This document shows, piece after piece, positions 226 to 20,022 of a stretch of 64,000 bases of DNA; position 1 is the stretch's first letter; each line of letters opens with the position of its first letter. The DNA comes from an uncultured Planctomycetales bacterium (GTDB taxonomy: Bacteria; Planctomycetota; MHYJ01; JACPRB01), in assembly GCA_964468745.1 (NCBI GenBank), contig CAYXVY010000201.1:4584-68583 (forward strand). Direction: 5' to 3'. A program made the translations under genes and the position numbers. The notes below the pieces were generated by a model. The model ran no database searches and had not been told where the DNA came from. It worked only from the letters and a program-made list of their open reading frames with translations.

Positions 226-2133
226 TCAACGCGCGAACAGGACGACCTTGTTGCGCCCGCCGTTCTTCGCCTGGTACAGAGCCTCGTCCGCATAGCGCAC
301 GAGAGTCGAGTGCGTGTCTCCAGCGCCGAGTTCGGCGACGCCGAGGCTCACCGTGCACGGAATCGTCCGTCCGTCGAACATGAAGTGCTCCTGTTCGATC
401 GCCGCGCGAATCTGCTCCGCGACCCCCATCGTGGCCGCCGCCGTTCGGCCCGGCAGATAGGCCACGAATTCCTCACCGCCGTACCGCCCGACCATACCGC
501 CCAGACGCAGGACGTGGTCTTTCACGATTCGCGCCGCCTGGCTGAGAACGACGTCCCCGCCCGCGTGGCCGAATTCGGTGTTCTTTTGGCGGAAATGGTC
601 CAAGTCGAACATGAGCACCGTCAGCGGCGCTTTCTGCTGGCGGTGCGCCTCGACTTCCTCCTCGAGCCGCGCGAAGAAGAATTGGCGCGTGAAGAGCTGC
701 GTGAGGCCGTCGATCGTCGCCTTCTCGAAGAAGCGCGCGTTTTGCAGGGATACGCCGACTTGCGCGGCGAAGATCGTCACGAGTTCCTGATCATCTTCGT
801 CGAACGCCCGGCGGTGACGGCGGTCGGTCACGCATAGTACGCCGACGGGTTTCGATTCGCCCCGCAACCCCTCTCTCCGCGCGACGATCGGCACCACCAT
901 ATACGCGCGCGCCTCATAGGGACGTCCCGGCGTATCTGCATCCGTCGCACGGAGGGCCACATTATTCGCGAACGCGAGCCCCGCGACCCCGTCGCCCGGT
1001 TTGATCGCGATCGATTCGGCCAGCGGCTTCTGCAAATGCGTCGAATGAGCGATGCGCAGCACGGCGGCGGATTCGTCGAGCAGCATGAGCGTTGCCTTCG
1101 AGCAGTCGAAGATGCGTCCGAGGCTCTCGACCGCCTCGCGGACGATCAGCTCGCGCGAGAGGAAGGAACTGATGCGGCGGGACGTCTCGCTCAATCTGAT
1201 CAGCTTCTGACTGCGCTCCGTCTGCCGTTCGTAGCTCAGGACATTTTCGATCGCCAGCGCGCCTTGCGTCGCGATGCCGCCAAGCAGCTGAAGGTCCGGC
1301 GGCGTGTAGTTCTTGAGCGGGTTCAGGGTGTCGGCGTGAATCGCGCCGAGGATGCGGTCTTGCTTGACGATCGGGGCGCACATCGCGGACTGGATGTTCT
1401 GCTCGAGGATGCTCTGGCCGCCGATGAATCGCTTGTCCGCCGCGGCATTGCGCGTGATGATCCCTTCGCGCTTTTCGATCGCCTCGTTGATGATCGTGTA
1501 GCTCACCTTAGTGAAGCCGTCCGCCTCGCTGCGCGCCGTCAGACGCTTGCCGGCTACCCGGAGATGGCCGATCTCGTCGTAGAGCAGGATGAATACCCTA
1601 TCGGGACCGAAGACGTCGGAGATGATCGTGATCAGCCCGTCGAGGAGGTCCTCGAGATTGAGCGTCGCGTTCAGCGTCGAGGAGACCCGATAAAACGTCT
1701 CGAGGTGCGTGGCGATGCGGTCGGACTTCCGAAGCGCGTCGAGCATCAGGTGGGGATCGCTTGACATCTTGACGCGCGACTCTATGACCGACTTGCCGAG
1801 CTTTGCTTCCAGCGCGTCGTCCGCGACGTAGTCATGCGGCAGAGCCGGCGTCTCGTCGCTGAAGAGGAGCGAGAGGGGTCCGATCGTGAGAATGTCGCCG
1901 TGGCGCAGTGCCTCTTCGGTGACGTCGCGGCTGTTGACCGTCAGCGCGGCCCGGGGTTCCGCGCGGGAGAGCCGGTATTCGCCGTCGCGGTACTTGATCA
2001 CCGCGTGGGTGGGCTGGACGCCGGGCTCGTCCAGGATGATCGAGTTCTGCGCGTCGCTGCCTATCATGCTCGTTGAGGAGAGCAGCAATGCTGTTCCCAT
2101 CTGCTGACCATCGATGAAGACGATTTGTGCCAC
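226..2133 (-). CDS. FHA-GAF-GAF-GGDEF diguanylate cyclase
   Basis: N-terminal FHA-like segment (GDILTIGPLSLLF), two GAF-like regions, C-terminal RYGGEEF GGDEF signature. Confidence 0.85.
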   Translation of the reverse strand: MAQIVFIDGQQMGTALLLSSTSMIGSDAQNSIILDEPGVQPTHAVIKYRDGEYRLSRAEPRAALTVNSRDVTEEALRHGDILTIGPLSLLFSDETPALPHDYVADDALEAKLGKSVIESRVKMSSDPHLMLDALRKSDRIATHLETFYRVSSTLNATLNLEDLLDGLITIISDVFGPDRVFILLYDEIGHLRVAGKRLTARSEADGFTKVSYTIINEAIEKREGIITRNAAADKRFIGGQSILEQNIQSAMCAPIVKQDRILGAIHADTLNPLKNYTPPDLQLLGGIATQGALAIENVLSYERQTERSQKLIRLSETSRRISSFLSRELIVREAVESLGRIFDCSKATLMLLDESAAVLRIAHSTHLQKPLAESIAIKPGDGVAGLAFANNVALRATDADTPGRPYEARAYMVVPIVARREGLRGESKPVGVLCVTDRRHRRAFDEDDQELVTIFAAQVGVSLQNARFFEKATIDGLTQLFTRQFFFARLEEEVEAHRQQKAPLTVLMFDLDHFRQKNTEFGHAGGDVVLSQAARIVKDHVLRLGGMVGRYGGEEFVAYLPGRTAAATMGVAEQIRAAIEQEHFMFDGRTIPCTVSLGVAELGAGDTHSTLVRYADEALYQAKNGGRNKVVLFAR

Positions 2134-2191
2134 GTGGTGCTGTCCCCCACCCCCAATACGTTGCCGAGAATTCTACGGTATACTGCGGCCC

Positions 2192-3856
2192 ATGCAACGC
2201 CTCGTCGCACTTCTTCTAATTGCGAGTCTGTCGCGGTTCGGTTGGACGCAGGAGTCGGAGGAGCGCGGACAGTTCGTCATCCACATGGCAGGGAAGAAGG
2301 TCGGTACGGAGGAGTGGCGCGTCGAGAAGTTCCCCGAGGGAGGTACCGGCGTCTTCGCGAAGACGAAGCTAACGATCGAATCGAAGGGCAACGCGCTCGT
2401 CGCCGCGAACGACACCGCGCTCAAGCTCGACAAGGACGGGCGCGTCGCCACGTACGCGGGCATCGCGAAGGTGAACGATCTGGAGCAGGAGACGCGGATC
2501 GAGGTAAAGGCGGGCAAGGCCGCGATCGCCACGAAGTCCGGCGGCAACGAAGCGACGAAGGAGGCGAAACTCGGCGAGAAGTCGCACCTCCTCGACAACA
2601 ATTGCTTCATCCAGATCGGTCTCATCGCGCGAACGTACGACGCGAAAAAGGGACGTTTTTACCCCATCCGCATCTTCGCGATCGGGACGCTCGGCGAGCT
2701 CGACGCGTCGATCGATGATCGTGGCCCGATGCGGATGACGTCGGGCGACAAGTCCGTCGACGTGCGCCACATCATCGTCAACGTCGGCCGGCTCGGCATC
2801 AGCGTCTACCTGCGCGGTGACGGGCGTGTGGCGGCGGTCCGGAATCCGATGCAGGGCGTGACGGCCTACCTTGCGGAGTACGAAGGATGGGTCGTCGGCG
2901 GTTTGCGCGTTGAGATCAAGCGCCCGGACGGCGTTGTCGAGTCCGAAGTGACGTTTAAGAGCGGCGGCATCACGCTCTCCGGCTCGTTCACACGGCCGCG
3001 CGAGCTCAAACGCCTGGCGGCAGCCGTTGTGCTCGTCTCGGGTTCCGGCCCGCAGGATCGCGATGAAAACGTCGTCGGCGCGAAAGTCGAGGATGCGTTC
3101 CAGTGGAGCATCTTCAAGAGCACGGCGTATGAGCTCTCGGCCGCCGGGTTCGGCGTGCTTCGTTACGATGACCGCGGCGTGGCGAAGAGCGAAGGGGTAT
3201 TCGACCTGGCCAAACTGAGCGATTTCGTGGCGGATGCGGCGGCGGCCGTGGCGTACCTGCGGACTCGGGACGACGTCGATCCGGACCTCGTCGGCATCGT
3301 GGGCCACAGCGAGGGGGGGATTGTCGCGCCAATCGTCGCGAACAAAGACGCGCGCGTGCGCGCTCTATTCCTGATGGCCGGAACGGGCAGACCGCTTGAC
3401 GCCGTCATTCTCCAGCAGAGCGAGGCGGGGTTGCGCGAACAGGGCGTGTCCGAAGACGTCATCGCGCGCCAGCTGGAGAAGCAGCGCGCGCAATTCGCGG
3501 AGATCCGAACCTGCGAGAGCGACTGGATTACCATCGACGAGCGGGAGACGTTCATTGGGTGGCTGCGCGAACACTTCGAACACGATCCCGCCAGGGAGAT
3601 CGCCGGAGTGAAGGCGGCCGTCGTCGTCTTCCAGGGCATGAAGGACGCGCAGGTCTATCCGGAAAATGCGGAGTTGCTCGAGAAGGCGATGAAAGGGGCG
3701 GGGAAGGAGAATTTCGAGGTGCGACGCTATACCGACCTCGACCACCTGTTTATGAAGCACAAGGCGGGCATCGCGGACTACGCGGACGCGTCACGGCGCG
3801 TCGACGAGTCGTTTCTTCGCGAGCTTGCGACCGCGCTCGGGAAATGGCTGCGATGA
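2192..3856 (+). CDS. secreted alpha/beta-hydrolase (dienelactone hydrolase / S9-like)
   Basis: signal peptide MQRLVALLLIASL, nucleophile elbow GHSEGG, VVVFQGMKD motif; start chosen at the ATG that gives the signal peptide. Confidence 0.7.
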   Translation: MQRLVALLLIASLSRFGWTQESEERGQFVIHMAGKKVGTEEWRVEKFPEGGTGVFAKTKLTIESKGNALVAANDTALKLDKDGRVATYAGIAKVNDLEQETRIEVKAGKAAIATKSGGNEATKEAKLGEKSHLLDNNCFIQIGLIARTYDAKKGRFYPIRIFAIGTLGELDASIDDRGPMRMTSGDKSVDVRHIIVNVGRLGISVYLRGDGRVAAVRNPMQGVTAYLAEYEGWVVGGLRVEIKRPDGVVESEVTFKSGGITLSGSFTRPRELKRLAAAVVLVSGSGPQDRDENVVGAKVEDAFQWSIFKSTAYELSAAGFGVLRYDDRGVAKSEGVFDLAKLSDFVADAAAAVAYLRTRDDVDPDLVGIVGHSEGGIVAPIVANKDARVRALFLMAGTGRPLDAVILQQSEAGLREQGVSEDVIARQLEKQRAQFAEIRTCESDWITIDERETFIGWLREHFEHDPAREIAGVKAAVVVFQGMKDAQVYPENAELLEKAMKGAGKENFEVRRYTDLDHLFMKHKAGIADYADASRRVDESFLRELATALGKWLR

Positions 3857-4194
3857 AGAAGCTGTTCGAGATCCTCTCGCCGGACGAGAAGGCGCAGGTG
3901 GAGAAGAGCCTCGATGCGACGACGGCCCCGACGCCGCGCGCGCGGGAAAAGACGCAGAACGTCCGTCGCATCGTCGAGGAGCGCTGCGTGGTCGATCCGG
4001 AGGCCGAGGCGCGCTGGAGCGCAAGCACGGAGCGCGTGCGGCAGAAGGTGCTTGCCGAGACGATCTGGAGGCTCGGGTGCATAATCGAGGGGTCGTCCAC
4101 AGCGGTGATGGGGCTGGATTCGTTCTCGATGGGACACGGCTTCAAGCTCGCGCATCGCAAGCTCGATGCCGGAGCGGCGTTTATACTGTTTTAG
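3844..4194 (+). CDS. hypothetical protein (116 aa)
   Basis: ORF begins MAAMKKLFEIL right at the hydrolase stop, with a 13-nt overlap; no recognisable domain. Confidence 0.35.
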   Translation: MAAMKKLFEILSPDEKAQVEKSLDATTAPTPRAREKTQNVRRIVEERCVVDPEAEARWSASTERVRQKVLAETIWRLGCIIEGSSTAVMGLDSFSMGHGFKLAHRKLDAGAAFILF

Positions 4195-4205
4195 CGGGTG
4201 CGACC

Positions 4206-4730
4206 ATGAGGCGAATCGCGGTGCTGGGGCTGCTGGCCGCGGCCGGGTGCAATATCCCGAGCTACACGAAGGGGGAATGGCCGGCAGAGCTTCCGCCGGA
4301 GCAGTTCTACGTTGACGCGTACACCGCGGATCACGCTAATGCGAAGGTGCAGTCGTCGAACGACTACTTCGACTGGGTACTGCGTTTCTACAAGGGCTAC
4401 CAGGTCGTGCCGGGGTGGGAGAAGCAGGAGGCGGGGCTGAAGAAGCAGCTCGGCGACGAGGCGTACGCGGCCATCGCGCCGCGCCTGTGGGACCTGGGCC
4501 GCGTGATTTCGGCCGAGTGGGCCAAGCTCAACACGACGCGCAAGATCGACAGCGCGATGCTCCAGCTATGGGGAAACGTGCTGCAGAAGTCGTGTGCGGC
4601 GAAGAAGCTGGACGCCGCGATCGACAGGATCAACGCGGACGTGAAGGACGTGCTCGTCGGCACGCTCGCGAAGGCGGACGTCGTGAAGAAGGACCGGTAC
4701 GCCGACGTGCTGCCCGCGAAGACGCCGTAA
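4206..4730 (+). CDS. hypothetical lipoprotein
   Basis: MRRIAVLGLLAAAGC lipobox-type signal; the upstream part of the long ORF is non-genic. Confidence 0.55.
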   Translation: MRRIAVLGLLAAAGCNIPSYTKGEWPAELPPEQFYVDAYTADHANAKVQSSNDYFDWVLRFYKGYQVVPGWEKQEAGLKKQLGDEAYAAIAPRLWDLGRVISAEWAKLNTTRKIDSAMLQLWGNVLQKSCAAKKLDAAIDRINADVKDVLVGTLAKADVVKKDRYADVLPAKTP

Positions 4731-4760
4731 CAGCTGGAGCAGAGGGTCAGTCGATAATCC

Positions 4761-5414
4761 ATGTCTGCAATCGCCATCGTGGTCTGCCTCGTCGCGCTGG
4801 GCGCGCTCGGCTGGCTGGGCTGGATCAGCGTGCAGAGTCTCCGGCAGGCGGCATTGATGCGCGGCGCACACGATACGGTCACGCGGGACATGCAGGACGC
4901 GTCCGTCGCGCTGTACGGCGACGTGCGCGTCGAGCGGGGATTGGGCGGCGCGGGCCACTCGTGCCTCTGGCGTCGCACGGTCTACGAGGAGCGGTCGGGA
5001 TGGGGCCGGCGCCGGCACTGGCGCACCGTATCGGACGAGGCGGACATCGCGGACTTCGTCTTGATGGTTCATGGGGCCGAAGTGCGCATCGACGAACTGC
5101 CGACCGAGGTGCAGGGCGCGGCATCCGATCGCGGTTACGAGGGGGGCGGGTTCTTCGGGTTCGGCGGCCCCGATTCGCGCCACACCGAATACTGGCTGCC
5201 GGTCGTTCCTCAACTCACGATCGTGGGGCGACTGGAGAATCGCGGGGGCCGCTGGCTGTTGAAGCGCGACACGACGATCGGTCTGCTGTTTTCCGCGGAG
5301 GCTCCCACAGTCGCGGCGCGAGCGGAGCTGATGAAGGGGCTTGCGGGCATCGCCGGAATTGTTGCAGGCATCGTCTTTGTCATCTGGTTTCTTACATCGA
5401 ACAATCTGCGCTGA
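4761..5414 (+). CDS. membrane protein with N- and C-terminal TM helices
   Basis: hydrophobic helices at both ends (IAIVVCLVALGALGWLGW and GIAGIVAGIVFVIWFL) around a Gly-rich middle. Confidence 0.5.
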   Translation: MSAIAIVVCLVALGALGWLGWISVQSLRQAALMRGAHDTVTRDMQDASVALYGDVRVERGLGGAGHSCLWRRTVYEERSGWGRRRHWRTVSDEADIADFVLMVHGAEVRIDELPTEVQGAASDRGYEGGGFFGFGGPDSRHTEYWLPVVPQLTIVGRLENRGGRWLLKRDTTIGLLFSAEAPTVAARAELMKGLAGIAGIVAGIVFVIWFLTSNNLR

Positions 5415-5563
5415 TCTGGATCGGAACCCACCTTCGCCGACTTTCACAAGGCACAGTGTGCTTGCGGGCTTCGGCGGGCGAGTCGGGATTTAAAAATGAA
5501 GCACCCTACGGCGGGTACCGCAGGGCGCTTCGGCAGGAGCGAAGTTGTGGGAATCTGGTGCGG

Positions 5564-7180
5564 TCAGGCTCTCTTCGCTGCCTCCCTAAGAATTGCGCCG
5601 GTCAGCCCGATCAGGAGTAGAAGCCCCGCGATTGCGGGGATCGCGCCGCCGGAATCGTTGTCGAGAACTGATCCTGAGCAGGCGCCGCCCTTATTCTTGC
5701 GGCCGCCCACCGATCCGAAGATCGAGCCCGGGAATGCATTCGGATCTTCGCGGATTCCGATGCCGTCATTCCCGCACCATTTGCGGTCGGGAGGCGTGAT
5801 CAGCATCTGCTCGGCGGTCGTGAGGCAGAGGTGCGTGGCGGGGGCGCCTACGAGCGCCGACGGCGCATCGACCGTGAGCCCGCTTGTCGCCGGCGTCACC
5901 GCGCCGACGGCGTAATCGTACGACCCATCGTCGGCGCCGACGTAGATCTTGTCCTTCACCACGTTTGGCCAGATGCCCGTGGCGCCGCTGAAGGGCCACG
6001 CGCCGCGCTGTGCCGGCAGGTCAGGGGCGCTGGGCGGTCCCGGGGGGCCTGTCACGAGCCTCGGAATCCACCACGCATGCAAAGTGAGGCCACCCTTGAA
6101 GCTGCCGTTCGCGCCGGAGGTCGCAAACAGGTAATTGCCGATCACCTTGATCTGGTGGAACACCGTCGGGAATCCCGCGGAGCCCGCCACAAAACCGGAG
6201 ATCACGGCGGTCGTCAGCGGGATCGTCGCCGAGTCGGCGTCATATACGTCGATCATGGCCCCGTAGACGGGGGGCGGCGACGAGAGCAGCACGGCTCTGC
6301 CGACGATGAGGTAGTTCCGTCCGGTGGCGATACCGGGGATGCCTGCGGGTGCCGTCCACGTCTGAATGCGATGCGAGTCGTCGTCGAGGCCGGCCAGCGG
6401 CATGCTCTTGATTCGCGTCCCCCACGGCACGCCCGTGGAGCCGGTGCCACCGATCTGCGTCGCGAGCGACGGGAACGGCGGTCCATACGTCGTCATGGAC
6501 GGCGTCGGATTCCACGGGTCCTGCGTGGCGCCCGCGAGAAGCACGTCCGTCTCGCGCAAGTCGATGCACCAGATCGCGTCCATCGTCGATCCACTCGGCG
6601 ACTTGTCCGTCCAGAACCAGCGATACGCGGGATTGACCGACGTAAAGGCGCCGCCGGTCGATCGCGTGAAGCCGGCGTCCGTGGGGGCGTATCCCGACCC
6701 GAGATGCACGAAGAGTTCGTTGATGTTGCTGACGTGTGGATCGAAGAACTCGTGGGTGCTGCCGCTGGGGTACGTTCCCACGACGAAGTAGTGCGGATTG
6801 AGAGGGGGCACATTCACGTACACGGCGCCCTGAAGCGAACCGGTCGTGCCCGTCACTGTCACGGGCGTGCCGTTCCCCGGCCCGATGCGGCGGACGCCGA
6901 CGCTCCCCGGCGAGATCGCCAGGACCACGGACGGGTTGATGTTGCTTGGGTGGCCGGCGAGTTCGTACATCGACTGTCCCGTGCTGGCCGAGCTCTCGAA
7001 CGTATCGATCCCTGCACCCGTGGTCCGGATGCGGCTCAAATACGCGAACCCCGGCCCGTGGTACGCGTACGAGTAGTCGCGAACGGTTGCTTGAGCCTGC
7101 GGGCTGTCTACGGCAATGCCCGCGAAAGCGACGACCGCGCTTGCGATGAACAGAAAACGCGACCCCACAAAACTGCGCAT
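5564..7180 (-). CDS. secreted protein, paralog A, MYXO-CTERM-like C-terminal sorting signal
   Basis: signal peptide MRSFVGSRFLFIASAVVAFAGIA; C-terminus GGACSGS...AIAGLLLLIGLTGAILREAAKRA (Cys, TM helix, basic tail); about 55% identical to the protein at 34397..35968. Confidence 0.75.
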   Translation of the reverse strand: MRSFVGSRFLFIASAVVAFAGIAVDSPQAQATVRDYSYAYHGPGFAYLSRIRTTGAGIDTFESSASTGQSMYELAGHPSNINPSVVLAISPGSVGVRRIGPGNGTPVTVTGTTGSLQGAVYVNVPPLNPHYFVVGTYPSGSTHEFFDPHVSNINELFVHLGSGYAPTDAGFTRSTGGAFTSVNPAYRWFWTDKSPSGSTMDAIWCIDLRETDVLLAGATQDPWNPTPSMTTYGPPFPSLATQIGGTGSTGVPWGTRIKSMPLAGLDDDSHRIQTWTAPAGIPGIATGRNYLIVGRAVLLSSPPPVYGAMIDVYDADSATIPLTTAVISGFVAGSAGFPTVFHQIKVIGNYLFATSGANGSFKGGLTLHAWWIPRLVTGPPGPPSAPDLPAQRGAWPFSGATGIWPNVVKDKIYVGADDGSYDYAVGAVTPATSGLTVDAPSALVGAPATHLCLTTAEQMLITPPDRKWCGNDGIGIREDPNAFPGSIFGSVGGRKNKGGACSGSVLDNDSGGAIPAIAGLLLLIGLTGAILREAAKRA

Positions 7181-7379
7181 TGGTGAGCCCCTCCAACGAT
7201 CGACCCTGTTGGCACCGCACCCGACATCGTCCTTGCATATCCATTTGCGAAAGGGCCCGCGACTTCTTGAGAAATCTTCACGACCAAAACAATTTCGATG
7301 CAATGTGTCACTTCGGAGTTGGCTTTTCTGTGCGGACGCTATGAGAATGAGGGCGCGCATGCACGAACTTGAAACGCGG

Positions 7380-8105
7380 ATGGGAGGATCGGCAGAGAAC
7401 TTCCCGAACACGACGTGGGCGTCCCTCTTTTCGATGACAGACGCGGCGTCGGCCGCGGCGCGACAGGAGGCGTTGAGCAAGATCGTCGGGCGGTATTGGC
7501 GGCCCGTCTACGCCTACGTGCGCGCCTCCGCGGGGAAGCCCGTCGAAGACGCGAAGGATCTCACGCAGGCGTTCTTCTGCCACATGATCGAGGACGACAT
7601 GTTCGCGAAGTACGTCCGCGAGCGCGGGCGGTTTCGCGACTACCTCAAAGGCGCCTTGCGCAATTTCCTCGCGGAATCGTACCGTTCAAGCTCGGCGCTG
7701 AAGCGCGGCGGCGGCCGTGCGGTCGTTCCGCTCGACACGGCCCAGATGGAAACGGAGGCGTTCGGCCGGCAGCTGCGGGAGGCGAATCCTGAGGAGATGT
7801 TCGACCGTCAGTGGGCGCGCGACCTGCTCATGGAGGCGCTGCAGGACCTGCGCCGCCAGCTCGAGGGCGAGGGACGGCAGGACCAGTGGCGCGTGTACGA
7901 GACGATCGAACTCTCAAGCGAGAGCCCCGTGCCGAGCTACGAGGACATCTCGAAGCGCTTCGCGATTTCGACGCACGAAGTGAAGAACGCGCTGTTCGCG
8001 GTGCGCGGCCGGCTGCACCGCATCCTCCGCGAGAAAATCTCGTCGATCGTGACGTCGGAGCGCGAGCTGCGCGACGAGATGAAACACCTGTTCGGGAGCA
8101 GCTGA
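7380..8105 (+). CDS. ECF-like sigma-70 family factor (kinase-associated type)
   Basis: conserved N-terminus MGGSAENFPNTTW shared by three paralogs; sigma region 2 YWRPVYAYV...DLTQAFF; region 4-like C-terminus. Confidence 0.7.
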   Translation: MGGSAENFPNTTWASLFSMTDAASAAARQEALSKIVGRYWRPVYAYVRASAGKPVEDAKDLTQAFFCHMIEDDMFAKYVRERGRFRDYLKGALRNFLAESYRSSSALKRGGGRAVVPLDTAQMETEAFGRQLREANPEEMFDRQWARDLLMEALQDLRRQLEGEGRQDQWRVYETIELSSESPVPSYEDISKRFAISTHEVKNALFAVRGRLHRILREKISSIVTSERELRDEMKHLFGSS

Positions 8106-12630: not shown

Positions 12631-12668
12631 TGGTGGAATGCCCTAGACGATTTGAGAACTAGCGTGGT
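12631..12668. repeat. direct repeat copy A (tggtgga..ctagacg.tttgaga)
   Basis: about 27 of 36 nt identical to copy B at 13162..13196; both copies carry tggtgga. Confidence 0.5.
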
Positions 12669-13105
12669 CAACGTTTTCGCGAACGAGCCAGCGCTTTGAG
12701 GCGTGAGAAGTCGCCGTCGATGAGGGCCTGCTTCTTGGCGTGCGTCCAGCCTTTGAGTTGTTGCTCGCGGTCCCGAGCGGACGAGGCGGACGCGTGCGTC
12801 TCGAACAAGACGATGCGTTCGACGGGGTTACGTCGCGTGAAGTTGCCTCCCCAACCGATTTGATGGCGGCGTGCCCGCTCGCGCGGGTGGACACGAGTCA
12901 TGCCGACGTAATACCGGCCATCCTTGAGAACGGCGATGTACACGTACCACACACCACGGTGTGCTTCGAGACGCGAAAGTTCGCCGGGAAATCGGAAAGA
13001 AAATCGCGTTTGTTTCGAGGAGTGGTTCGACTCGCGTGTTTGGAGGCGCTCGCTCACCACACTTCGACATCGGTCAGGATTCAGGGGGGCGCAGTGCTTT
13101 CGCAA
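12668..13105 (-). CDS. GIY-YIG nuclease superfamily protein (UPF0213-like)
   Basis: GVWYVYIAVLKDGRYYVGMT GIY-YIG motif; local GC lower than surroundings; true start may lie downstream of the first ATG. Confidence 0.65.
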   Translation of the reverse strand: MRKHCAPLNPDRCRSVVSERLQTRESNHSSKQTRFSFRFPGELSRLEAHRGVWYVYIAVLKDGRYYVGMTRVHPRERARRHQIGWGGNFTRRNPVERIVLFETHASASSARDREQQLKGWTHAKKQALIDGDFSRLKALARSRKR

Positions 13106-13161
13106 TCCTCATGTTTGCACTGAGCGAGGGACCCGCAGCTACGCTGCGGGACCGAGTCGAA

Positions 13162-13196
13162 GTGGTGGACCACTCTAGACGCTTTGAGAGCCGCGG
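13162..13196. repeat. direct repeat copy B
   Basis: matches copy A; gtggtggacc shares 8 nt with the ssrA 3' end (ggtggacc). Confidence 0.5.
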
Positions 13197-13222
13197 TGCG
13201 GGAGTCGCGGGCGTAGGAGGGA

Positions 13223-13567
13223 TCAACGTAGCCTCAACACGGTCTCACGAACGATTGCAAATCGTCCCCGTAGTCTCTCGCCAGCAGCATCGATGGTCCT
13301 CTGCACCGCGCCTCGGACTTGCATCGGTAGACTGTTGCGCAGCCGCAGCAGAAGGATTCCGGCATGAGGGAGCTTCTGCGCGAAGATCAATTCTCCGAAG
13401 TCCTTGTCCTCGGTAATCAGGATGCGATCTTCAGCGTGCGCAATCGCCAGTATCTGCTCGTCCGATTGCCCGCGCGCCACGAGAGCGACGGATGTGGCGT
13501 CATGACCGAGGCTTTGAAGATGGACCGCAAGGCTGACGCCGAGGTTCTCGTCGACGAGGAACTTCAC
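13223..13567 (-). CDS. DUF5615 / Mut7-C PIN-like putative toxin
   Basis: MKFLVDENL...ILITEDKDFGEL pattern of PIN-like DUF5615; 4-nt overlap with the upstream DUF433 gene. Confidence 0.65.
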   Translation of the reverse strand: MKFLVDENLGVSLAVHLQSLGHDATSVALVARGQSDEQILAIAHAEDRILITEDKDFGELIFAQKLPHAGILLLRLRNSLPMQVRGAVQRTIDAAGERLRGRFAIVRETVLRLR

Positions 13568-13809
13568 GCAGAGCGACTTTCGGGCAGAGGAATGATCTCC
13601 TCGTGTCCTGCCAGCCCTGCGGCATAGGCGAGACAGGCCCGAACGCCAGCGTCCGTCAGCTGAGGGTTTTCCTTCAGGAGTTCCCCGACCGACATGCCCT
13701 GCGCCAGGAGATCGAGGACCCGCTGCACGGTGACGCGAGTACCACGCACGATGGGCTTACCGCCCATGACCTTCTGATTCACAACGATGCATTCCTCGGC
13801 AGGGCTCAT
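13564..13809 (-). CDS. DUF433 putative antitoxin
   Basis: GGKPIVRGTRVTVQRVLDLLAQGMSVGELLKENPQLT, typical of DUF433; start taken at MSPAEE. Confidence 0.6.
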   Translation of the reverse strand: MSPAEECIVVNQKVMGGKPIVRGTRVTVQRVLDLLAQGMSVGELLKENPQLTDAGVRACLAYAAGLAGHEEIIPLPESRSA

Positions 13810-13867
13810 GAATGAACTGTAACACTCGCTGATGACGCGTGCAAGGCGCGTCCCTGTGATCGACGGG

Positions 13868-15751
13868 TTATCGCCGCGACGCACGACCTAATCGCTCTTC
13901 GATGGCCGCAATGACTTCGACGAGAGACTCGAGCAGTCGGTCCTCTTGCGGGCCGCCCGCGACCTGCCGCAAGGCGACTTCCTTCGCCAGCAGCGTCGCG
14001 AGATACCGGAAGCGGCGCGCCGAATCGGCCGCCACAAGCAGGTAATCCGGATGTGAGCCGTTGAACTCCCACCGGCCGGCGCCGAGGCGCGATCGCCACC
14101 GGCCCGAGGGATCCTTCACCTCGATCGGCTCTGGAATCCCAACGTCTTCTCGCTCCGGCGCCTCGATTTCTTGCGCCACCTCGATCCTTGCCTCACTTGT
14201 CGCCCGTCGCTCCGCCTGCCTCGCCTCGATATGGACGACCGCTTCACCAATCGCATCAGCGAGGTATGTCGCCTTCGCCCCTTTCGTGGCGAGTCGTCCC
14301 GGTCCCTCCATCCGCCAGACGAAGTCCACGCCGCTCCTGATCGCGCGCCCCGTGGCGTCGAGAGCGCGAGCGATGAGCGACTTCTCCGCCCTCACCGGAA
14401 GGCGGCATATGCCCGGCACAATGCGAACGCTATCAAGCGGACCTGGCTCATAGATCTCGGGGGTATCCTGTTCGCCTGTCGGCACGGATTCGCGCGTAAT
14501 CGCTCCCTCGACCGAGTCGCCCGACCCGGGTTCGCCATGCGGCGCCTGAACGGGGAAGAGCTCGTAGTGCGGCAGCCGGCGGTGGAATTCGCGAAAGACG
14601 TCCTTCAGTCTCTTGTGGAGCGCCCGGTCTGCCTCATGAGCGCGCGACTGCGAAAAGCGAGCCAGCCACTCGCTCACGCGCTCCCCGAGTGCGAGCATCG
14701 CGGCGGCGAAGACCTCGGCTTTCTCGTTCGGCACGATGCCGCGGCGCGTGCCGGGCGCAACGTCCAGGAACGGCGCATCCACGATGCCGGTCAGCCGCCC
14801 GCTCTGCCATGGTACATGGCGCAAGTCGACGGCTTCGAGCAGCGTGAGATCGTTCGAAACGACCGTTCCCGCGCACGCGAGCGTGACTTGCCCCGGCCCG
14901 TGTTCCTCGGGCAGATAGTGAAGCTCGACACGGATCGGCAGATGGCCTTCGACCTGCCACTCCCGAACCTCCGTCAGCGGCACCCCTTGGAAGCGCTGCG
15001 GCCTCACGGGGAAGTCCTGCTGTGCGCGACCTCGTGCGAGGCGGTCGACGACGCGGAGGCGCACGTCGCGTTGAAGGAGCTGGCCACGCAGCTCGAAAGC
15101 GAGAAAGTCGGCGAGACGGCGTCCCGACATCAACCGCTGCGCCGACGGATGAAGGTCTCGAATCACGACCTCCGTCCACGTCGGCTCCATCGTCTTCTGC
15201 CCACGCTCGGGTCCTACAGAGCCGTCCGACTTTTCCTCTTCCAGCTGCAGCACCCATGTCTCCGATCCCTTCACCCGCGAGCGGATCGCGAGGTGGCGTC
15301 CGACGGACCAGAAGCCGAGCAGGCCGATGCCGTACTTGCCCTGCTGGAGCAGTTTGTAACGCTGCTCCGGCGTCAGACGCTGCTTGTAAGAGTGGCCGAT
15401 GTGCGTGGCGATGTGGTTGAGCGCGTCGGGGCGCGCCATTTCCGGCAGAACACCCACACCGTTGTCGAATATCGAGAGGCCGATGCTGCCGTGGTGCCGG
15501 AGGCGTGTCACCGTGACCTCGGTCGCGCCTGCGTCGAGCGAGTTTTGGATCAATTCCGCGACGGCCTTTTTCGGATCGTTCTGCGAGCGCGCAAGGAGCC
15601 GGATGAGATCGAACGGGTCCGCCGGCTTGAGCCGGACGCGGCGTGTCTCGCGCGGAAGCGTAGGGGCGGGCATGCGTGCATGATTGTCCCCTGTCGGATC
15701 GGGATGAAGCGTCTCATCCGGCGCGACGGCATCGTCGGTCGAGTTCGACAC
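13868..15751 (-). CDS. GHKL (MutL/Hsp90/MORC-like HATPase) ATPase-domain protein, 627 aa
   Basis: Bergerat N-box ELIQNSLDAGATEV, G1 box FDNGVGV, G2-like box KYGIGLLGFWSVG; long C-terminal region of unknown function. Confidence 0.6.
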   Translation of the reverse strand: MSNSTDDAVAPDETLHPDPTGDNHARMPAPTLPRETRRVRLKPADPFDLIRLLARSQNDPKKAVAELIQNSLDAGATEVTVTRLRHHGSIGLSIFDNGVGVLPEMARPDALNHIATHIGHSYKQRLTPEQRYKLLQQGKYGIGLLGFWSVGRHLAIRSRVKGSETWVLQLEEEKSDGSVGPERGQKTMEPTWTEVVIRDLHPSAQRLMSGRRLADFLAFELRGQLLQRDVRLRVVDRLARGRAQQDFPVRPQRFQGVPLTEVREWQVEGHLPIRVELHYLPEEHGPGQVTLACAGTVVSNDLTLLEAVDLRHVPWQSGRLTGIVDAPFLDVAPGTRRGIVPNEKAEVFAAAMLALGERVSEWLARFSQSRAHEADRALHKRLKDVFREFHRRLPHYELFPVQAPHGEPGSGDSVEGAITRESVPTGEQDTPEIYEPGPLDSVRIVPGICRLPVRAEKSLIARALDATGRAIRSGVDFVWRMEGPGRLATKGAKATYLADAIGEAVVHIEARQAERRATSEARIEVAQEIEAPEREDVGIPEPIEVKDPSGRWRSRLGAGRWEFNGSHPDYLLVAADSARRFRYLATLLAKEVALRQVAGGPQEDRLLESLVEVIAAIEERLGRASRR

Positions 15752-15944
15752 GGAATTGAACCTCCTTCAAGTGGTGCGGATCCAAGGACCAATGCAAACC
15801 CAGGCGTTCGGCGATCTCCTTGGCGATCAACTCTCGCGTATCGATCGGCCGTGCGTCGTCAGCTCGGATGACGCGACGCCGGACAGCATGACGCTGCCTT
15901 CGTCTGTGCGTAATGGAAGGCTCCTTGAACTGAATGGAGAGTGC

Positions 15945-16277
15945 TCAAGCGGCGGAACGCAACTTCACGCGGTCCAGGGGGCTCGGGCTGCCGAGCACGA
16001 CTTCGTCGAGCGAGACTTCGCGTCGCAGACGCTTCAGCTTCCCGGCCCCATAGCCTTCGTGGACCGCGCAGGCGGCGAGATAGGCGCGCCAGTTTCCGAT
16101 GGGGCCAAACGGCGCACCGCTCTGGATCTGCTGCAACACTCGGAGGATCGCTTCCTGCAGCCAATCTTCGGCGTCGTGTCTTCCAGCGCGTGTCCGATAG
16201 CGGATGAACGACACCATGACGGACCATTCATCGCGAGCCGTGTTCTGTAGCGCTTCGATCGCGGCGGTATCCGGCAT
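15945..16277 (-). CDS. hypothetical protein with sigma-70 region-2-like segment (possible remnant)
   Basis: DAEDWLQEAILRVLQQ...WRAYLAACAVHE resembles ECF region 2.1-2.2; only 110 aa. Confidence 0.3.
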   Translation of the reverse strand: MPDTAAIEALQNTARDEWSVMVSFIRYRTRAGRHDAEDWLQEAILRVLQQIQSGAPFGPIGNWRAYLAACAVHEGYGAGKLKRLRREVSLDEVVLGSPSPLDRVKLRSAA

Positions 16278-16620
16278 ATCCCCTCCGGGCAGGGCATCTC
16301 TGGGAAAAGTGCTCGGCGGGGCTGATCGAGCGTGGGCGGGTCAGCGTGGGTCCGTCGAGCCACACTGAGGCTGTACGCTTGTACGTTGGAATCCGACTCC
16401 CGTCACCAACGATTGTGCGGCACCTTCAGAGGCGGTCGTTCCGCGCGATCGATGTCAACTTCCTGGCGTGGCGTTCGCGAAATTCCGCGAACCATTCGAG
16501 TGAACCACGATGGCGATACGCCGCGTTTCGAGACCAACGGATGGGTTCGTGCGTTGCGGAGGCGTCCCGATGCTTCCGATTGGCACGCAGTCGCTTGCCG
16601 CAGGTTCAATACGAGGAAGG

Positions 16621-16989
16621 GTGGTGGACCCGGGGAGAATCGAACTCCCGTCCCAAGGTGAATCAACGGGGGCGTCTACGCGCGTAGTCCGCGGTTTATC
16701 TCGTCCGCTGGACGCCCACGGACGGGCTTCCAGCGGACCTTCCGGCTGTGAACCGTTCACCTAGACGCCCCGCCAGACGAGCGTTTCGGCATAGCCCACC
16801 TTTAGCGTCGATCGTGACCCACGGCTTGCGCCATGGCAGGCATGGTCACGAGGACGTCACGGACTAAGCCGCGAGAGCGTAATGCGGTTCAGCATTTGAA
16901 GTTGTGCTCGATGTTTAGCGAGGCCCACGAGCGTCCTCGGCGCGCAGCCTTCCATCTCCTCGACCCGGTCGATACCAGTTCGGGCCCAC
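16621..16989 (-). ncRNA. ssrA: tmRNA (transfer-messenger RNA)
   Basis: 5' GGGCCCGAACUGGUAUCGACCGGG matches the tmRNA 5' consensus; 3' T-arm GGGAGUUCGAUUCUCCC with acceptor CGGGUCCA; G3-U wobble in the acceptor stem; internal reading frame ends ...YALAA-UAG; smpB lies immediately upstream. Confidence 0.9.
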
Positions 16990-17151: not shown

Positions 17152-17625
17152 TCACCGGCGCATCGTCCGACGCCGCAAGTCCCGATCGCTTTCGCGCTTC
17201 TTGATCGAATCGCGCTTGTCCCACGTCTGCTTGCCGCGCGCGAGGCCGACCTCCAGCTTCGCGAGGCCGCCCTTGAAGTACAACGCGAGAGGCACGAGGG
17301 TGAATCCCTTCTCCCGCAGCTGGTGCGCCAGCTTGTCGATCTGGCGCCGCTTCAGCAGCAGCTTGCGCGACCGCTTCGGCTCGTGATTGAGCGGCCCCGC
17401 ATTGGCGTACAGGGCGATGTCCATTCCGACAATGAACGCCTCGCCGTTCCGGATCTTCCCCCACGCCTCGTGAATGCTCACGCGACCGTTGCGGATCGAC
17501 TTCACTTCCGATCCTGCGAGCACGAGCCCCGCCTCGACCTTCTCGATAATCTCGTACTCGAACCAGGCCCTGCGGTTCTTCTGGACCATCTTGATCTCGC
17601 CGTCGTCGGCGCTTTTCGGACTCAC
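17152..17625 (-). CDS. smpB: SsrA-binding protein SmpB
   Basis: NRRAWFEYEIIEKVEAGLVLAGSEVKSIR and GFTLVPLALYFK motifs, basic C-terminal tail. Confidence 0.92.
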   Translation of the reverse strand: MSPKSADDGEIKMVQKNRRAWFEYEIIEKVEAGLVLAGSEVKSIRNGRVSIHEAWGKIRNGEAFIVGMDIALYANAGPLNHEPKRSRKLLLKRRQIDKLAHQLREKGFTLVPLALYFKGGLAKLEVGLARGKQTWDKRDSIKKRESDRDLRRRTMRR

Positions 17626-17653: not shown

Positions 17654-18355
17654 TTGCGATTTGCTATCATCGCAGTTCCCATGATGCTCGAAATCTTCCA
17701 GGCCGTGACCGGCATCTTCGTCGTCGTGTACGACGGCCAGCATGCCCTCAAGTTCACCCTTGGCCGGGCGCAGCAGGTCGTCGGCCCCGGCATCCATTTC
17801 AAGTGGCCGATCATCCAGAAGTACAAGGTCAAGGAGACGAAGCACACGACGCTCGACCTCGACCCGCAGGTCATCCAGCTCAAGGACGACCTCGTCTATG
17901 AGGTCGACGCGAAAGTCGTGTACCAGATCGTGGACCTCCGCAAGGCGATGATCGAAGTGGACGACCTGGTCGCGGGCCTGCGCAACAGGGTTGCCATGTC
18001 CGTGCAACGCGTCGTCAAGGCGCAGGACCGGCAGTCGATCGGCGACGTCGTGTCGCTGATCGCGCAGGTGCGGCAGGAACTGCGCCCCATCGAGGAGCAG
18101 TGGGGCGTCACGATCCACGAGTTCGGCTTCTCGAACCTGTCGCCGTCACCGGCAACGCTCGAAGTCACGCAGCTGCGGCTGCTCTCGGAGGAGAAGCTGC
18201 GCCTCTATCGACAGTTCCTCGACCAGAGCGGTCTGACGCGCGAGGCGGCCGTCGCTCTCATTGCGGGGGCCGTCGTGACCGTGCCGAAAATCGACGGCGG
18301 ACCGCCGCCTCCTCCGCCTCCGGCGCCTCCGAAGCCGGACGAGGAAGGTGCGTAG
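17654..18355 (+). CDS. SPFH/Band-7 domain protein
   Basis: stomatin/prohibitin-like core (VVYQIVD..AMIEVDD), N-terminal TM helix, Pro-rich tail. Confidence 0.65.
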   Translation: MRFAIIAVPMMLEIFQAVTGIFVVVYDGQHALKFTLGRAQQVVGPGIHFKWPIIQKYKVKETKHTTLDLDPQVIQLKDDLVYEVDAKVVYQIVDLRKAMIEVDDLVAGLRNRVAMSVQRVVKAQDRQSIGDVVSLIAQVRQELRPIEEQWGVTIHEFGFSNLSPSPATLEVTQLRLLSEEKLRLYRQFLDQSGLTREAAVALIAGAVVTVPKIDGGPPPPPPPAPPKPDEEGA

Positions 18356-19348
18356 GTGGAGTACGCGCGGCGCGCGCTCCGCGCGATCGTCGAGTGGGCG
18401 ATGCGTCATCCGACGGAGGCGATCCTTCTCGTCATCTTCATCGCGCGCCTCTTCGCCACGACGGTGCAGAGCGGCTGGGTGGGCGTCCTCTTCCGTTTCG
18501 GTCGCGCGCGACGCGTCATCGAGCCCGGCTTCCGCTGGCTCATTCCGGGCCTTGAGCACGTCCGGAAGATCCACTCGAAGGCGATCACGCAGGTGCTGCC
18601 GGCGCAGCGCATCGCCATCGCGGACGGCCTCGTCTACGACGTCGGCGCGAGTCTCGTGTACCGGGTGCGCGATCCGATGAAGGCGATGATCGAAATCGAC
18701 GACGTGACGGCAGGGTGCGCGACGGCCGGCGCACTTGCGGTGTGGGACGTGCTTCGCGAGCGTCGCCACGATGAGCTTCGCGACCGCGAACTGCTCGACG
18801 AAGCGCTCACACGCAACGTGCGCGCACGAATCGCGATTTGGGGACTCGATGTCGATCGCGCCGGTTTTACGACCATCGCGCCCACGGCCAAGACGATTCG
18901 CCTGACCCAGCTGGAGCCGCTTGTCTTCGAGCGCGCGCTGGCGATGGGGGCGTTGACGGCAGGCGGCCTCTCGACGGTCGAGGCGCTCTTGCTGCTTGGC
19001 TCCGACCGCAAGATCACCTCGCACGCGCACGCGCGGTATCGCGATCGCGCCCTCCGCCGTCCGCCGCCGACGATCGCCGCGCGACGGATTGCCGAGAAGC
19101 TCTCGGAGGAGGAAGCGGCGTTCGTCGAGGAGGAGATCGACGCGCTGCTCAGCGACGAGTTCATGGTCACCACCGCGGCGGAGGAGGCGCTCGAGAAGCG
19201 CGGCCGCGTGATCGTCGCGCGGCTTCGGGAACGGTTGCGCCGCGTCGGCGATCTCGAGGCCGCGGTGAGGGCCGAGGAACTGATCAAGCGCATCGAGAAG
19301 GCCGAAAAGCAAAAGGAAACCGAGCAGGCTGAGGAAGAGACGGAGTGA
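18356..19348 (+). CDS. SPFH/Band-7 domain protein (second paralog)
   Basis: GTG start directly after the previous stop; LVYRVRDPMKAMIEIDD core; coiled-coil acidic C-terminus. Confidence 0.65.
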   Translation: MEYARRALRAIVEWAMRHPTEAILLVIFIARLFATTVQSGWVGVLFRFGRARRVIEPGFRWLIPGLEHVRKIHSKAITQVLPAQRIAIADGLVYDVGASLVYRVRDPMKAMIEIDDVTAGCATAGALAVWDVLRERRHDELRDRELLDEALTRNVRARIAIWGLDVDRAGFTTIAPTAKTIRLTQLEPLVFERALAMGALTAGGLSTVEALLLLGSDRKITSHAHARYRDRALRRPPPTIAARRIAEKLSEEEAAFVEEEIDALLSDEFMVTTAAEEALEKRGRVIVARLRERLRRVGDLEAAVRAEELIKRIEKAEKQKETEQAEEETE

Positions 19349-20022
19349 TGCGCTGCTGGTACGTCTATCTGGCGCGCTGCGCAGACGGCACCCTGTACAC
19401 CGGCGTCACGACGGATCTTGCGCGCCGAATGGCGCAGCACTGCGACGGCACCGGCGCCAAGTACACGCGGAGCCGCGGCGGCGCGAGGCTCGTGTCGTGG
19501 GAGGCGCACGCGACGAAAGGGCGGGCGCTCTCGCGCGAAATCGCGGTGAAGCGGTTGACGCGGGCGCGCAAGCTGGAGATCCCGCGCGTCGAGGGAATCC
19601 GGCCTGCGGCCCCCGCGGACATGACGTTCATCAGGCGCACCATCGCGACCATCGGCATGGACGACGAGCGGATGTCGCACGAGCAGTACGTGATCGTCGG
19701 AGCGCGCCACGGCTTCGCGCGCATCAAGCCGTACGCGAAGTGTTTCGAGCTGGGAAGTGTCGTGGTGCTGCCGTGCTACCGGCGGCGCGGGGTCGGCGCA
19801 TCCTTGGTGCGTTTTCTGGTCGCGCGCTTTCCGTCCCGCCGCATCTGGCTGACGACGGCAAGCCCAGAGTACTTCGAGAAGCTGGGGTTCCGGCGGGGAA
19901 GGCCGCCGGCGGAGCTGCGCGCGAAGCTCTCGAAGCTGGCCCGGGTGCATGGCCGGCGGGACATCGTGCCGATGGCCTGCGCACGGCCGCAACGCCCGGC
20001 GCTAAGTCCTGCCGATAAATAG
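19348..20022 (+). CDS. GIY-YIG domain fused to GNAT acetyltransferase
   Basis: CWYVYLARCADGTLYTGVTTDLARRMAQH GIY-YIG motif; C-terminal VVLPCYRRRGVGASLVRFL GNAT motif A; TGATG stop/start overlap with upstream gene. Confidence 0.65.
   Translation: MRCWYVYLARCADGTLYTGVTTDLARRMAQHCDGTGAKYTRSRGGARLVSWEAHATKGRALSREIAVKRLTRARKLEIPRVEGIRPAAPADMTFIRRTIATIGMDDERMSHEQYVIVGARHGFARIKPYAKCFELGSVVVLPCYRRRGVGASLVRFLVARFPSRRIWLTTASPEYFEKLGFRRGRPPAELRAKLSKLARVHGRRDIVPMACARPQRPALSPADK

Follow-up and report, generated by a model that had tools for sequence, protein, structure and literature searches.

An integrase-less islet at the 3′ end of ssrA in a Planctomycetales genome and the GHKL ATPase family that it carries

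We wanted to establish what kind of DNA lies immediately 3′ of ssrA, the transfer-messenger RNA (tmRNA) gene, in an uncultured Planctomycetales bacterium, and what the large ATPase encoded there might do. The DNA analysed (from here on, the window) is a 64,000-nucleotide stretch of contig CAYXVY010000201.1 (positions 4,584 to 68,583; GenBank assembly GCA_964468745.1), and a preliminary description of it had proposed that the genes beside the tmRNA form a decayed island, in which a 627-aa ATPase, alone or with a small upstream open reading frame (ORF), is a candidate defence gene. All features listed there, namely the tmRNA, the 110-aa and 627-aa proteins, DUF433, DUF5615 and a GIY-YIG gene, are present, every one on the minus strand, as are the insert, its flanking repeats, smpB and a hairpin described below. 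Positions 13172-16620 are an islet of ~3.46 kb, devoid of an integrase, in the 3′ end of ssrA, with 9-10 nt of the tmRNA terminus duplicated and the tmRNA left intact. Its cargo is four co-directional genes, which encode the 110-aa protein (orf110), the 627-aa GHKL ATPase, a DUF433 protein and a DUF5615 protein. Taken jointly, the evidence is best explained by an ssrA islet without integrase that holds a toxin-antitoxin addiction module and an accessory, clamp-like ATPase, a reading to which we assign a probability of roughly 0.55.

The borders of the islet were defined by comparison with relatives located via SmpB and via the tmRNA 3′ sequence, all of which are metagenomic contigs or metagenome-assembled genomes (MAGs), with taxonomic labels and linkage to a single organism that are uncertain. 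The window tmRNA gene (16622..16987), whose 3′ end is the integration target, is complete (ARAGORN, tag AEPHYALAA; Rfam RF00023, 145 bits, model positions 1-374 of 374). In four relatives, L094, L097, L101 and L104, the site is empty: the tmRNA end runs directly into TTCGACTCG..., which corresponds to the window from 13161, and the inserted DNA (13172..16620; 3449 bp, rising to 3459 bp when one copy of the repeat is counted) is missing. SmpB is 90% identical to that of the window in L094, 66% in L097 and 63% in L101; L104 is likewise empty, and a further contig, L107, was grouped with L094 as an empty-site contig. L094, in which the tmRNA is 99.5% identical to that of the window, aligns to positions 18088-17096 and 16989-16622 and then jumps to 13171-12897. 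The junction in L094 reads ...GGGTCCACCA|TTCGACTCGGTCCCGCAGCGGAGCTGCGGG..., and the window reads ...GGGTCCACCA|CCCTTCC... where the tmRNA ends and, after another 3.46 kb, ...TGGTCCACCAC|TTCGACTCGGTCCCGCAGCGTAGCTGCGGG.... This junction alignment places direct copies of GGTCCACCAC at both borders, the left one (16621..16630) consisting of the final 9 nt of the tmRNA plus 1 nt and the right one occupying 13162..13171. The 10-mer occurs exactly twice in the window, against 0.09 copies expected by chance, and the first base of the insert lies 1 nt past the tmRNA CCA. The proposal of an island-like block at the 3′ side of ssrA is therefore upheld by the comparison of the locus among relatives that had been suggested as a check on it, which yielded empty-site variants as well as a 10-bp repeat derived from the target.

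How the islet came to be there was considered next to two negative results. No recombinase domain was detected at E ≤ 1 in any ORF or spacer ORF of 13074-16760, as the preliminary description had stated for the integrase, and none was seen beside ssrA in the more distant relative L103, whose flank, the sole long one inspected, holds ordinary genes only. Further, searches of the window for long attachment (att) repeats, using the 16- and 28-nt tmRNA 3′ ends with up to 3 mismatches and a seed-10 repeat search, found none; the actual repeat has a length of just 10 bp and was recognised only via the empty-site contig. We suggest that the islet would have entered by site-specific recombination of the tyrosine-recombinase type, with an integrase that was lost later or was supplied in trans. 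The duplication of a tmRNA terminus is a signature of integration into the gene, known from islands in tmRNA and tRNA (t(m)RNA) genes.

The same junctions could be read in the opposite direction, with the block ancestral at ssrA and lost from the relatives by deletion between the 10-bp repeats. Recombination between short repeats would yield exactly the empty junction observed, and contig L093, ~89% identical to the window, also has orf110 followed by the ATPase. However, four relatives at very different distances (SmpB 90%, 66% and 63% identical in three of them) share the junction of tmRNA and TTCGACTCG, with GIY-YIG following wherever the contig reaches, and the deletion account is less parsimonious because the identical deletion must recur in four lineages. 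Moreover, the second repeat copy duplicates the tmRNA terminus, as integration does, and the more distant homologues of the ATPase are never at ssrA. We consider such a deletion very unlikely; whether inserted here or deleted in relatives, the block is a discrete, repeat-bounded unit.

One gene had been assigned to the island that does not belong to it. The small GIY-YIG protein (12668..13105; PF01541, E = 2e-10) is encoded outside the repeats, and its homologues directly follow the tmRNA in L094, L097 and L101 and adjoin smpB in L092. Similarly, a hairpin, CCCGCAGC-GTA-GCTGCGGG (13132..13150), now 3.46 kb away from the tmRNA, has its counterpart directly 3′ of the tmRNA end in L094, and in L097 a hairpin with another stem is found there. 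In view of this position directly 3′ of the tmRNA in empty-site relatives, we assign both the GIY-YIG gene and the hairpin to the native flank downstream of ssrA. On the other side, smpB (17152..17625), recognised by SmpB homologues and by synteny with Band_7 genes in L088, L094 and L097, is the native context upstream of ssrA.

Base composition was also considered as evidence for an island and was set aside, as GC, GC skew and GC content at third codon positions (GC3) were all non-decisive; the insertion is far better proved by the empty-site relatives and the target-derived direct repeat than by composition. GC3 averages 0.783 over the window genes (standard deviation 0.076); the two toxin-antitoxin genes and that for the GIY-YIG protein have values of 0.66-0.69 (z of -1.2 to -1.6), at the low end of the normal range, and orf110 (0.75) is likewise inside the range of window genes. 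The lower-GC DNA noted earlier thus exists for these three genes, but the signal is weak and the ATPase looks native, and the composition profile that had been proposed as a check decided nothing.

We next describe the main cargo gene, that of the 627-aa ATPase (13868..15751; HATPase_c_3, E = 2e-13). A word-indexed search gave 875 homologues, the best 120 of which are near full length and 43-78% identical; these 120 are named at most "ATP-binding protein", and no curated library is more specific. In an alignment of 45 homologues, mean column identity was 49%, 70 columns were invariant and HATPase_c_3 matched every member (45/45). All four GHKL motifs are invariant in this alignment (E66/N70/D73, D96-x-G98-x-G100, G138-K-Y-G-I-G-L-L-G146 and T193), as is a pair of arginines, R336-R337, in the second domain. 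Compared with L093, the gene has 4, 4 and 37 substitutions at codon positions 1, 2 and 3, respectively, and no indels. Judged from these alignments, the ATPase is under strong purifying selection and its GHKL motifs are intact.

The structure was modelled with AlphaFold2 (mean confidence, pLDDT, 81 for the full protein and 87 for the C-terminal half). In the predicted layout, a GHKL/Bergerat domain (residues 37-230) is followed by an alpha/beta domain that resembles a transducer (231-342), a helix of 50 residues (343-392), a linker that is disordered and acidic (406-430), an immunoglobulin (Ig)-like sandwich (441-526) and a small three-strand, three-helix module (542-622), the latter within a family-specific module that comprises residues 535-627. 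When the predicted model was compared with the PDB by Foldseek, the N-terminal and middle domains of Hsp90 were matched at E of ~1e-12, MORC2 and MORC3 with a target-normalised template modelling score (TMt) of 0.46-0.49, and topo VI-B as well, with alignments that span 360-480 columns and thus extend into the middle domains of Hsp90, MORC and topo VI-B. A fold search of BFVD returned only generic GHKL proteins (Hsp90, rIIA and topoisomerase II), and the C-terminal model matched Ig domains only.

The Bergerat ATPase motifs named in the preliminary description are thus all there, and the tests for membership in the MutL, Hsp90 and MORC families were negative. The MutL model TIGR00585 scored 28.5 bits against a cut-off of 180, over residues 60-104 only, and none of the 45 members has a C-terminal Pfam match. 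For Hsp90/HtpG, NF010683 scored 25.3 bits against a cut-off of 455 and PF00183 gave no match. The MORC motif GhXhhpXXRhl, searched as a regular expression, occurs in 0 of the 45 members. Likewise, the PADLOC search that had been suggested gave no defence family past the generic GHKL motif: in PADLOC-DB v2 there is no full-length defence match, the best being REase_II (E = 0.0012, residues 63-171), and all matches (REase_II, TmtA and MzaB) are limited to the ATP-binding motifs at residues ~57-171, with E of 0.001-0.05 for the window protein and 5e-6 at best for the family.

The last 93 amino acids of the ATPase contain eleven invariant residues: W552, R553, S554, R555, W561, N564, H567, D569, K590, E591 and E608. 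A phmmer search with this segment against 1.84 billion representative proteins gave only 188 hits, nearly all of them located at the C-terminal end of proteins no longer than 672 aa. For the last ~90 residues, Pfam gave nothing at E ≤ 1, a profile run against PDB sequences gave chance matches only, and there was no fold match in the PDB. The remote-homology search proposed earlier for the C-terminus thus led only back to the family itself, and to Ig folds. Two long repetitive proteins, P0314 and P0351, which have 10-11 matches each to WRSR...W..N, were rejected, as their Pfam matches look compositional and the two are probably artefacts. We conclude from the searches that the C-terminal module is specific to this family.

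By analogy with MORC, paraMORC, MutL and Hsp90, the protein is most likely an ATP-gated dimeric clamp. ATP would be bound by the Bergerat fold (E66/N70/D96 and the G-loops), and the invariant R336-R337 pair of the transducer domain would sense the gamma-phosphate. The substrate may be nucleic acid, which is hinted at weakly because the ATPase domain is consistently basic across the family (median isoelectric point, pI, 10.1). The Ig-like domain and the C-terminal module (WRSR, W, N, HxD, KE and E) could serve in partner binding or dimerisation or could form an unrecognised effector site.

To see how the family is distributed, one genome per species was scanned with two strict peptide patterns, so that the count obtained is a lower bound: at least 210 confirmed ATPase loci among 185,579 species. 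The best 80 of the 210 are all in MAGs, from Planctomycetota, Acidobacteriota, Myxococcota, Binatia, Eisenbacteria, Gemmatimonadota and a few others, and identity between phyla is 40-47%. Complete chromosomes with a family member include OZ244999.1, OZ245006.1 and OY761158.1. All-against-all clustering of the ORFs around 87 loci revealed no conserved partner gene, as nothing adjoins the ATPase in more than 6 loci. Neighbour strands are random (35/35 upstream and 40/35 downstream), and the 145 immediate neighbours fall into 138 Pfam families, the commonest of which, AAA_14/DUF4143, appears 3 times. A SNF2-type helicase is a neighbour in one locus, and in L087 a SNF2 helicase lies on the opposite strand. 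The closest homologues (78%, 72%, 64% and 64% identical) are in four unrelated contexts, none of them at ssrA; L087, the locus of a close homologue, and L089, an ssrA locus without the ATPase, come from one metagenome. No tmRNA was found near the ATPase in the other loci. A tRNA lies within ~1.1 kb of the ATPase in 4 loci, with no convincing repeat, the match in L087 falling inside the ATPase gene itself. We note, as an observation apart, that a 9-nt copy of the tRNA-Ala 3′ end (CCTCCACCA) is present in L039 at 5396-5404, inside the ORF of an ISL3 transposase (5379-6635); this may be an att remnant or chance. Overall, the family is patchy and is nearly always a stand-alone chromosomal gene that is exchanged or inherited mainly within phyla. 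As such, it would constitute an undescribed, patchily distributed family of accessory chromosomal genes.

The second part of the cargo is the DUF433/DUF5615 pair. The predicted antitoxin, a DUF433 (COG2442) protein, is encoded at 13564..13809 if the likelier ATG start is used, or to 13884 from a GTG (PF04255, E = 2.5e-23), and the predicted toxin, a PIN-like DUF5615/Mut7-C/PIN_10 protein, at 13223..13567 (PF18480, E = 3e-26; PF01927, 5e-8; PF18478, 2e-6). The start of DUF5615 overlaps the stop of DUF433 by 4 nt (GTGA), and the 4-nt-overlapping pair described earlier is thus confirmed as a known predicted architecture (PMC2701414). PIN-COG2442 (DUF433) is a predicted class of type II toxin-antitoxin systems (Makarova et al. 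2009, PMC2701414), and by its domain content and gene arrangement the window pair is a member of that predicted class. In the islet, the pair would serve as an addiction module that keeps the element in place.

Hidden Markov models built from the pair were then used to scan ~0.77 Mb of ATPase-flanking DNA. DUF5615 genes were found in only 3 of the loci scanned (the window, L084 and L039, from two phyla), and in each the gene pair is directly beside the ATPase and co-directional with it. L084 (Gemmatimonadota; positions 432-3188) has the same order as the window (13223-15751), that is ATPase, DUF433, DUF5615, whereas L039 (Planctomycetota; 1164-3843) has tRNA-Ala, DUF433, DUF5615 and then the ATPase, with an ISL3 transposase 1.5 kb downstream of the latter. 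The ATPases of L039 and L084 are 45% and 40% identical to that of the window, respectively. It is unlikely that all three DUF5615 genes adjoin the ATPase by chance, for which the probability is of the order of 0.01 if ~ten flanking genes per locus are assumed. DUF433 was also detected without DUF5615: in L068 it lies alone, 5.5 kb from the ATPase, and in L052, a Thermoanaerobaculia MAG (positions 1730-7932), a MobA/VirD2 relaxase (1730-3685) and DUF433 (4153-4440) precede an ATPase homologue (5950-7932). The relaxase and the DUF433 gene, the latter 1.5 kb upstream of the ATPase, hint at a conjugative or mobilisable element in L052.

The adjacency raises the question of whether the ATPase, DUF433 and DUF5615 are one system, in which the ATPase senses an invader or stress and controls the PIN-like toxin via DUF433, as in ATPase-regulated toxin-antitoxin defence modules. 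In three loci that are distant from one another the pair directly adjoins the ATPase and runs the same way, 3 of 3 DUF5615 genes in the flanks scanned are immediate neighbours of the ATPase, and the gaps are short (58 nt or an overlap in the window, 56 nt in L039 and 245 nt in L084), all of which would suit such a system. Yet 84 of 87 loci are without the pair, so the ATPase does not need it; the gene order varies, the pair being upstream in L039 and downstream in the window; the pairs are just 31-43% identical to each other, and the GC3 of the pair differs from that of the ATPase. In addition, pairs of DUF433 and PIN genes are plentiful and form modules complete in themselves (PMC2701414), and they often gather in islands. 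We regard a three-gene system as improbable and, because the pairs have diverged so far and are missing from nearly all loci, take the adjacency to mean that both reside in regions that are mobile or variable, where the pair would be an addiction module.

Whether the ATPase itself is an accessory gene is the weakest step of our reading. In our view, the ATPase is more probably engaged in an accessory function, in conflict or in DNA maintenance than in core housekeeping, on the grounds of the islet itself, the patchy distribution and three independent adjacencies to one toxin-antitoxin family. Several observations weigh against this, or fit other histories equally well. First, a recombinase is not present, so the proposed mechanism of integration depends on the repeat. 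Second, the GC3 of the ATPase (0.77, z of -0.2) is native-looking, and a quick neighbour-joining tree of 84 homologues groups largely by phylum; each of these would be equally compatible with long residence or vertical descent. Third, the family was not found in 72,556 plasmids (PLSDB), 50,697 phage records (INPHARED) or IMG/VR contigs, and most neighbours of the ATPase are ordinary metabolic or housekeeping genes. Fourth, no recognisable nuclease or other effector domain was found in the protein, and the PADLOC matches amount to a generic ATP-binding motif. Finally, the clamp mechanism is argued by analogy, and nucleic acid is suggested as substrate by the pI.

The same observations bear on the alternative that the ATPase is a lineage-restricted, vertically inherited cellular protein, for instance an Hsp90-like paralogue with chaperone function or a clamp that acts in DNA repair or in the organisation of chromosomes, with an incidental presence in the islet, e.g. 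as a captured piece of chromosome moved among close relatives. A tree that is coherent by phylum, strong full-length conservation (40-47% identity across phyla and 70 invariant columns), native GC3, a solitary gene among housekeeping neighbours, the lack of plasmid, phage or viral copies in the collections searched, and top fold matches to Hsp90 are all what a protein of this kind would show. However, the 210 confirmed hits in 185,579 species and the 188 clusters at 50% identity are far too few for a core function in the phyla concerned, though the scan patterns were strict; the ATPase lies here within a precisely bounded insertion that is missing from relatives, and contexts vary even among homologues that are 64-78% identical. 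Further, the curated cut-offs for HtpG, Hsp90 and MutL are not reached, and the ATPase domain is basic, unlike that of Hsp90, which is acidic. Neither the same genes at the same locus in orthologous genomes nor membership in a conserved housekeeping family, either of which would have told against an island, was found. We therefore hold the cellular-protein explanation to be unlikely, if still one to be taken seriously, and retain the accessory role.

Within an accessory role, the ATPase family could more specifically be a mobile conflict or immunity gene, that is, a MORC-like clamp with the C-terminal module (WRSR...W..N..HxD...KE...E) as an unrecognised effector, acting alone or coupled to DUF433/DUF5615 and spreading on small integrase-less t(m)RNA islets. 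Against a defence reading, neither a recurring partner gene nor a defence-island context was seen in the 84 other ATPase loci. We put this specific proposal forward only tentatively and doubt it on balance; defence as such, for which the preliminary description had named the ATPase a candidate, is possible but would be a somewhat surprising outcome.

The fourth cargo gene, orf110 (15945..16277), is a small orphan with a sigma-70 region-2-like segment only (Sigma70_r2, E = 0.005). The segment noted earlier is seen again and no match to region 4 accompanies it, but the matches are sub-threshold (Sigma70_r2, 17 bits against a cut-off of 24; TIGR02937, 16 against 42.9), and membership in the sigma-70 or extracytoplasmic function (ECF) sigma families is not indicated by these models. 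Exactly one homologue, 80% identical and of equal length, was found in 5.8 billion protein clusters. Its gene is part of the 1.2-kb contig L093, which matches window positions 16481-15269 colinearly at 88.6% identity (orf110, spacer and the start of the ATPase). Because the substitutions between the two orf110 sequences are biased by codon position (11/11/28) and free of indels, we conclude that orf110 is a real protein-coding gene, to judge from this pattern, with weak constraint; possibly it is what is left of an ECF sigma gene. An equally long 110-aa ORF beside the tmRNA in L088 and L089 was considered as possible kin and dismissed as unrelated (E = 0.27). We also note that the non-coding DNA flanking orf110 (15752-15944 and 16278-16480) is 87-91% identical to L093, i.e. 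conserved like codon positions 1 and 2 of orf110 and above its synonymous sites, which suggests regulatory or RNA elements; Rfam gave no match in either segment.

It had been proposed that the small upstream ORF partners the ATPase. In a two-gene system of this sort, the sigma-region-2-like protein would act on either the ATPase or RNA polymerase by targeting or regulating it, and the co-directional arrangement of orf110 and the ATPase, with a 193-nt gap that is colinear in L093, would be compatible with it, as would the codon-position bias, if taken as a sign of protein expression. Nevertheless, the only homologue of orf110 in the 5.8 billion clusters comes from a near relative (~89% identical), and no orf110-like gene was found upstream of other ATPase family members, those that are 40-78% identical to the window protein included, even the 64-78% identical ones; the sigma match is sub-threshold and region 4 is missing. 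We consider this the most far-fetched of the explanations weighed here, and the proposed partnership is not borne out as a conserved one.

Several further observations concern the surroundings of ssrA. The ssrA flank is variable across the clade, 6 further contigs having unrelated flanks. In L088 (6127-6489) and L089 (2326-2688), in which SmpB is 74% identical, the tmRNA gene faces smpB in an inverted, convergent orientation, unlike in the window, L090, L094 and L097, where the two genes are co-directional. In L090 (10952-12145), the genes directly after the tmRNA include those for an MNT-like protein (NTP_transf_2) and for a partner of 146 aa, possibly a further toxin-antitoxin module at this hotspot. 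In the window, a sequence ~220 nt downstream of the tmRNA (16385-16405; GACGGGAGTCGGATTCC) matches the tmRNA T-arm (GACGGGAGTTCGATTCTCC) at 14 of 19 positions and could be a decayed partial copy or chance. Two GIY-YIG genes flank smpB-ssrA, the small stand-alone one described above (12668-13105) and a GIY-YIG/GNAT acetyltransferase fusion (19345-20022), both of which are kept near smpB in relatives (L088, L090, L092, L097, L101 and L102). Upstream of smpB, a divergent pair of Band_7 (SPFH) genes (17654-19348) is syntenic in L088, L094 and L097, where the first gene is 79-99% identical and the second 51-55%.

The islet documents base-pair borders in Planctomycetota, a phylum in which little is known of mobile elements, and shows that an integration may leave no trace other than 10 duplicated bp of the tmRNA end. 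Of greater use is what the islet carries, a well-conserved family of GHKL ATPases for which good structural models exist, and the occasional toxin-antitoxin linkage together with presence and absence at a defined site makes the ATPase open to simple experiments. If the protein is an immune or DNA-maintenance clamp, it would represent a new branch of the MutL/MORC/Hsp90 radiation; if it is instead a housekeeping protein, it would be a lineage-specific chaperone or DNA clamp worth annotating.

Finally, we compared the islet and its genes with known systems. Genomic islands and cryptic prophages are found at the 3′ end of ssrA or tRNA genes, e.g. CP4-57 of Escherichia coli and VPI of Vibrio cholerae at ssrA. 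Like these, the islet is inserted at the tmRNA 3′ end, has a repeat that regenerates the terminus, is missing from empty sites in relatives and has toxin-antitoxin cargo. Unlike them, it is only 3.46 kb long, has no integrase, excisionase or phage genes, has a repeat of just 10 bp and carries a main cargo gene of native-looking composition. We conclude that the islet falls among the ordinary islands that target t(m)RNA genes, as a minimal, integrase-less form, and that what is new is the C-terminal half of the ATPase.

The toxin-antitoxin pair does not differ substantially from the PIN-COG2442 modules (PMC2701414), with which it shares a DUF433 gene upstream of the PIN-like gene and a 4-nt overlap; its predicted toxin is of the DUF5615/Mut7-C branch of PIN-like domains. 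Among proteins with GHKL domains, the single-polypeptide GHKL-effector protein VcSduA, a GHKL-Shedu protein, can defend against phage (PMC12137116). The ATPase resembles VcSduA, the BbrUII/HgiDII-type restriction enzyme, MzaB and TmtA in having an N-terminal GHKL domain fused to other domains, but no PD-(D/E)xK, DUF4263 or other recognisable nuclease domain was found in it. With Hsp90/HtpG and MORC2/MORC3 it shares the best fold matches, over the ATPase and middle domains (TM-score for MORC3 of at most 0.49), and a size of ~600-630 aa, but sequence identity is 12-17%, the ATPase domain is basic and the C-terminal half is different; Pfam HSP90 and MutL_C gave no match in the ATPase.

The nearest concept to the ATPase is the radiation of MORC and paraMORC1-5, GHKL+S5 ATPases for which the motif GhXhhpXXRhl was defined (Iyer, Abhiman and Aravind 2008, PMC2292703). 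Genes for an SF-II helicase, a methylase or an endonuclease are part of about 70% of MORC operons, some paraMORC3 members are stand-alone, and some paraMORCs have unexplained C-terminal domains (PMC2292703). Like these proteins, the ATPase has an N-terminal GHKL domain with all motifs, which is matched by Pfam HATPase_c_3, an S5-like transducer domain (as predicted) with a conserved basic residue, a patchy spread and a family-specific C-terminal extension with invariant polar residues. Unlike them, it lacks GhXhhpXXRhl in all 45 members aligned and has no neighbourhood of helicase, methylase or restriction-endonuclease genes, and its tree follows phyla and is not scrambled. No paraMORC is described as having the Ig-like domain or the WRSR...HxD...KE module, and by description the ATPase is set apart from them, with the paraMORC radiation as its closest parallel.

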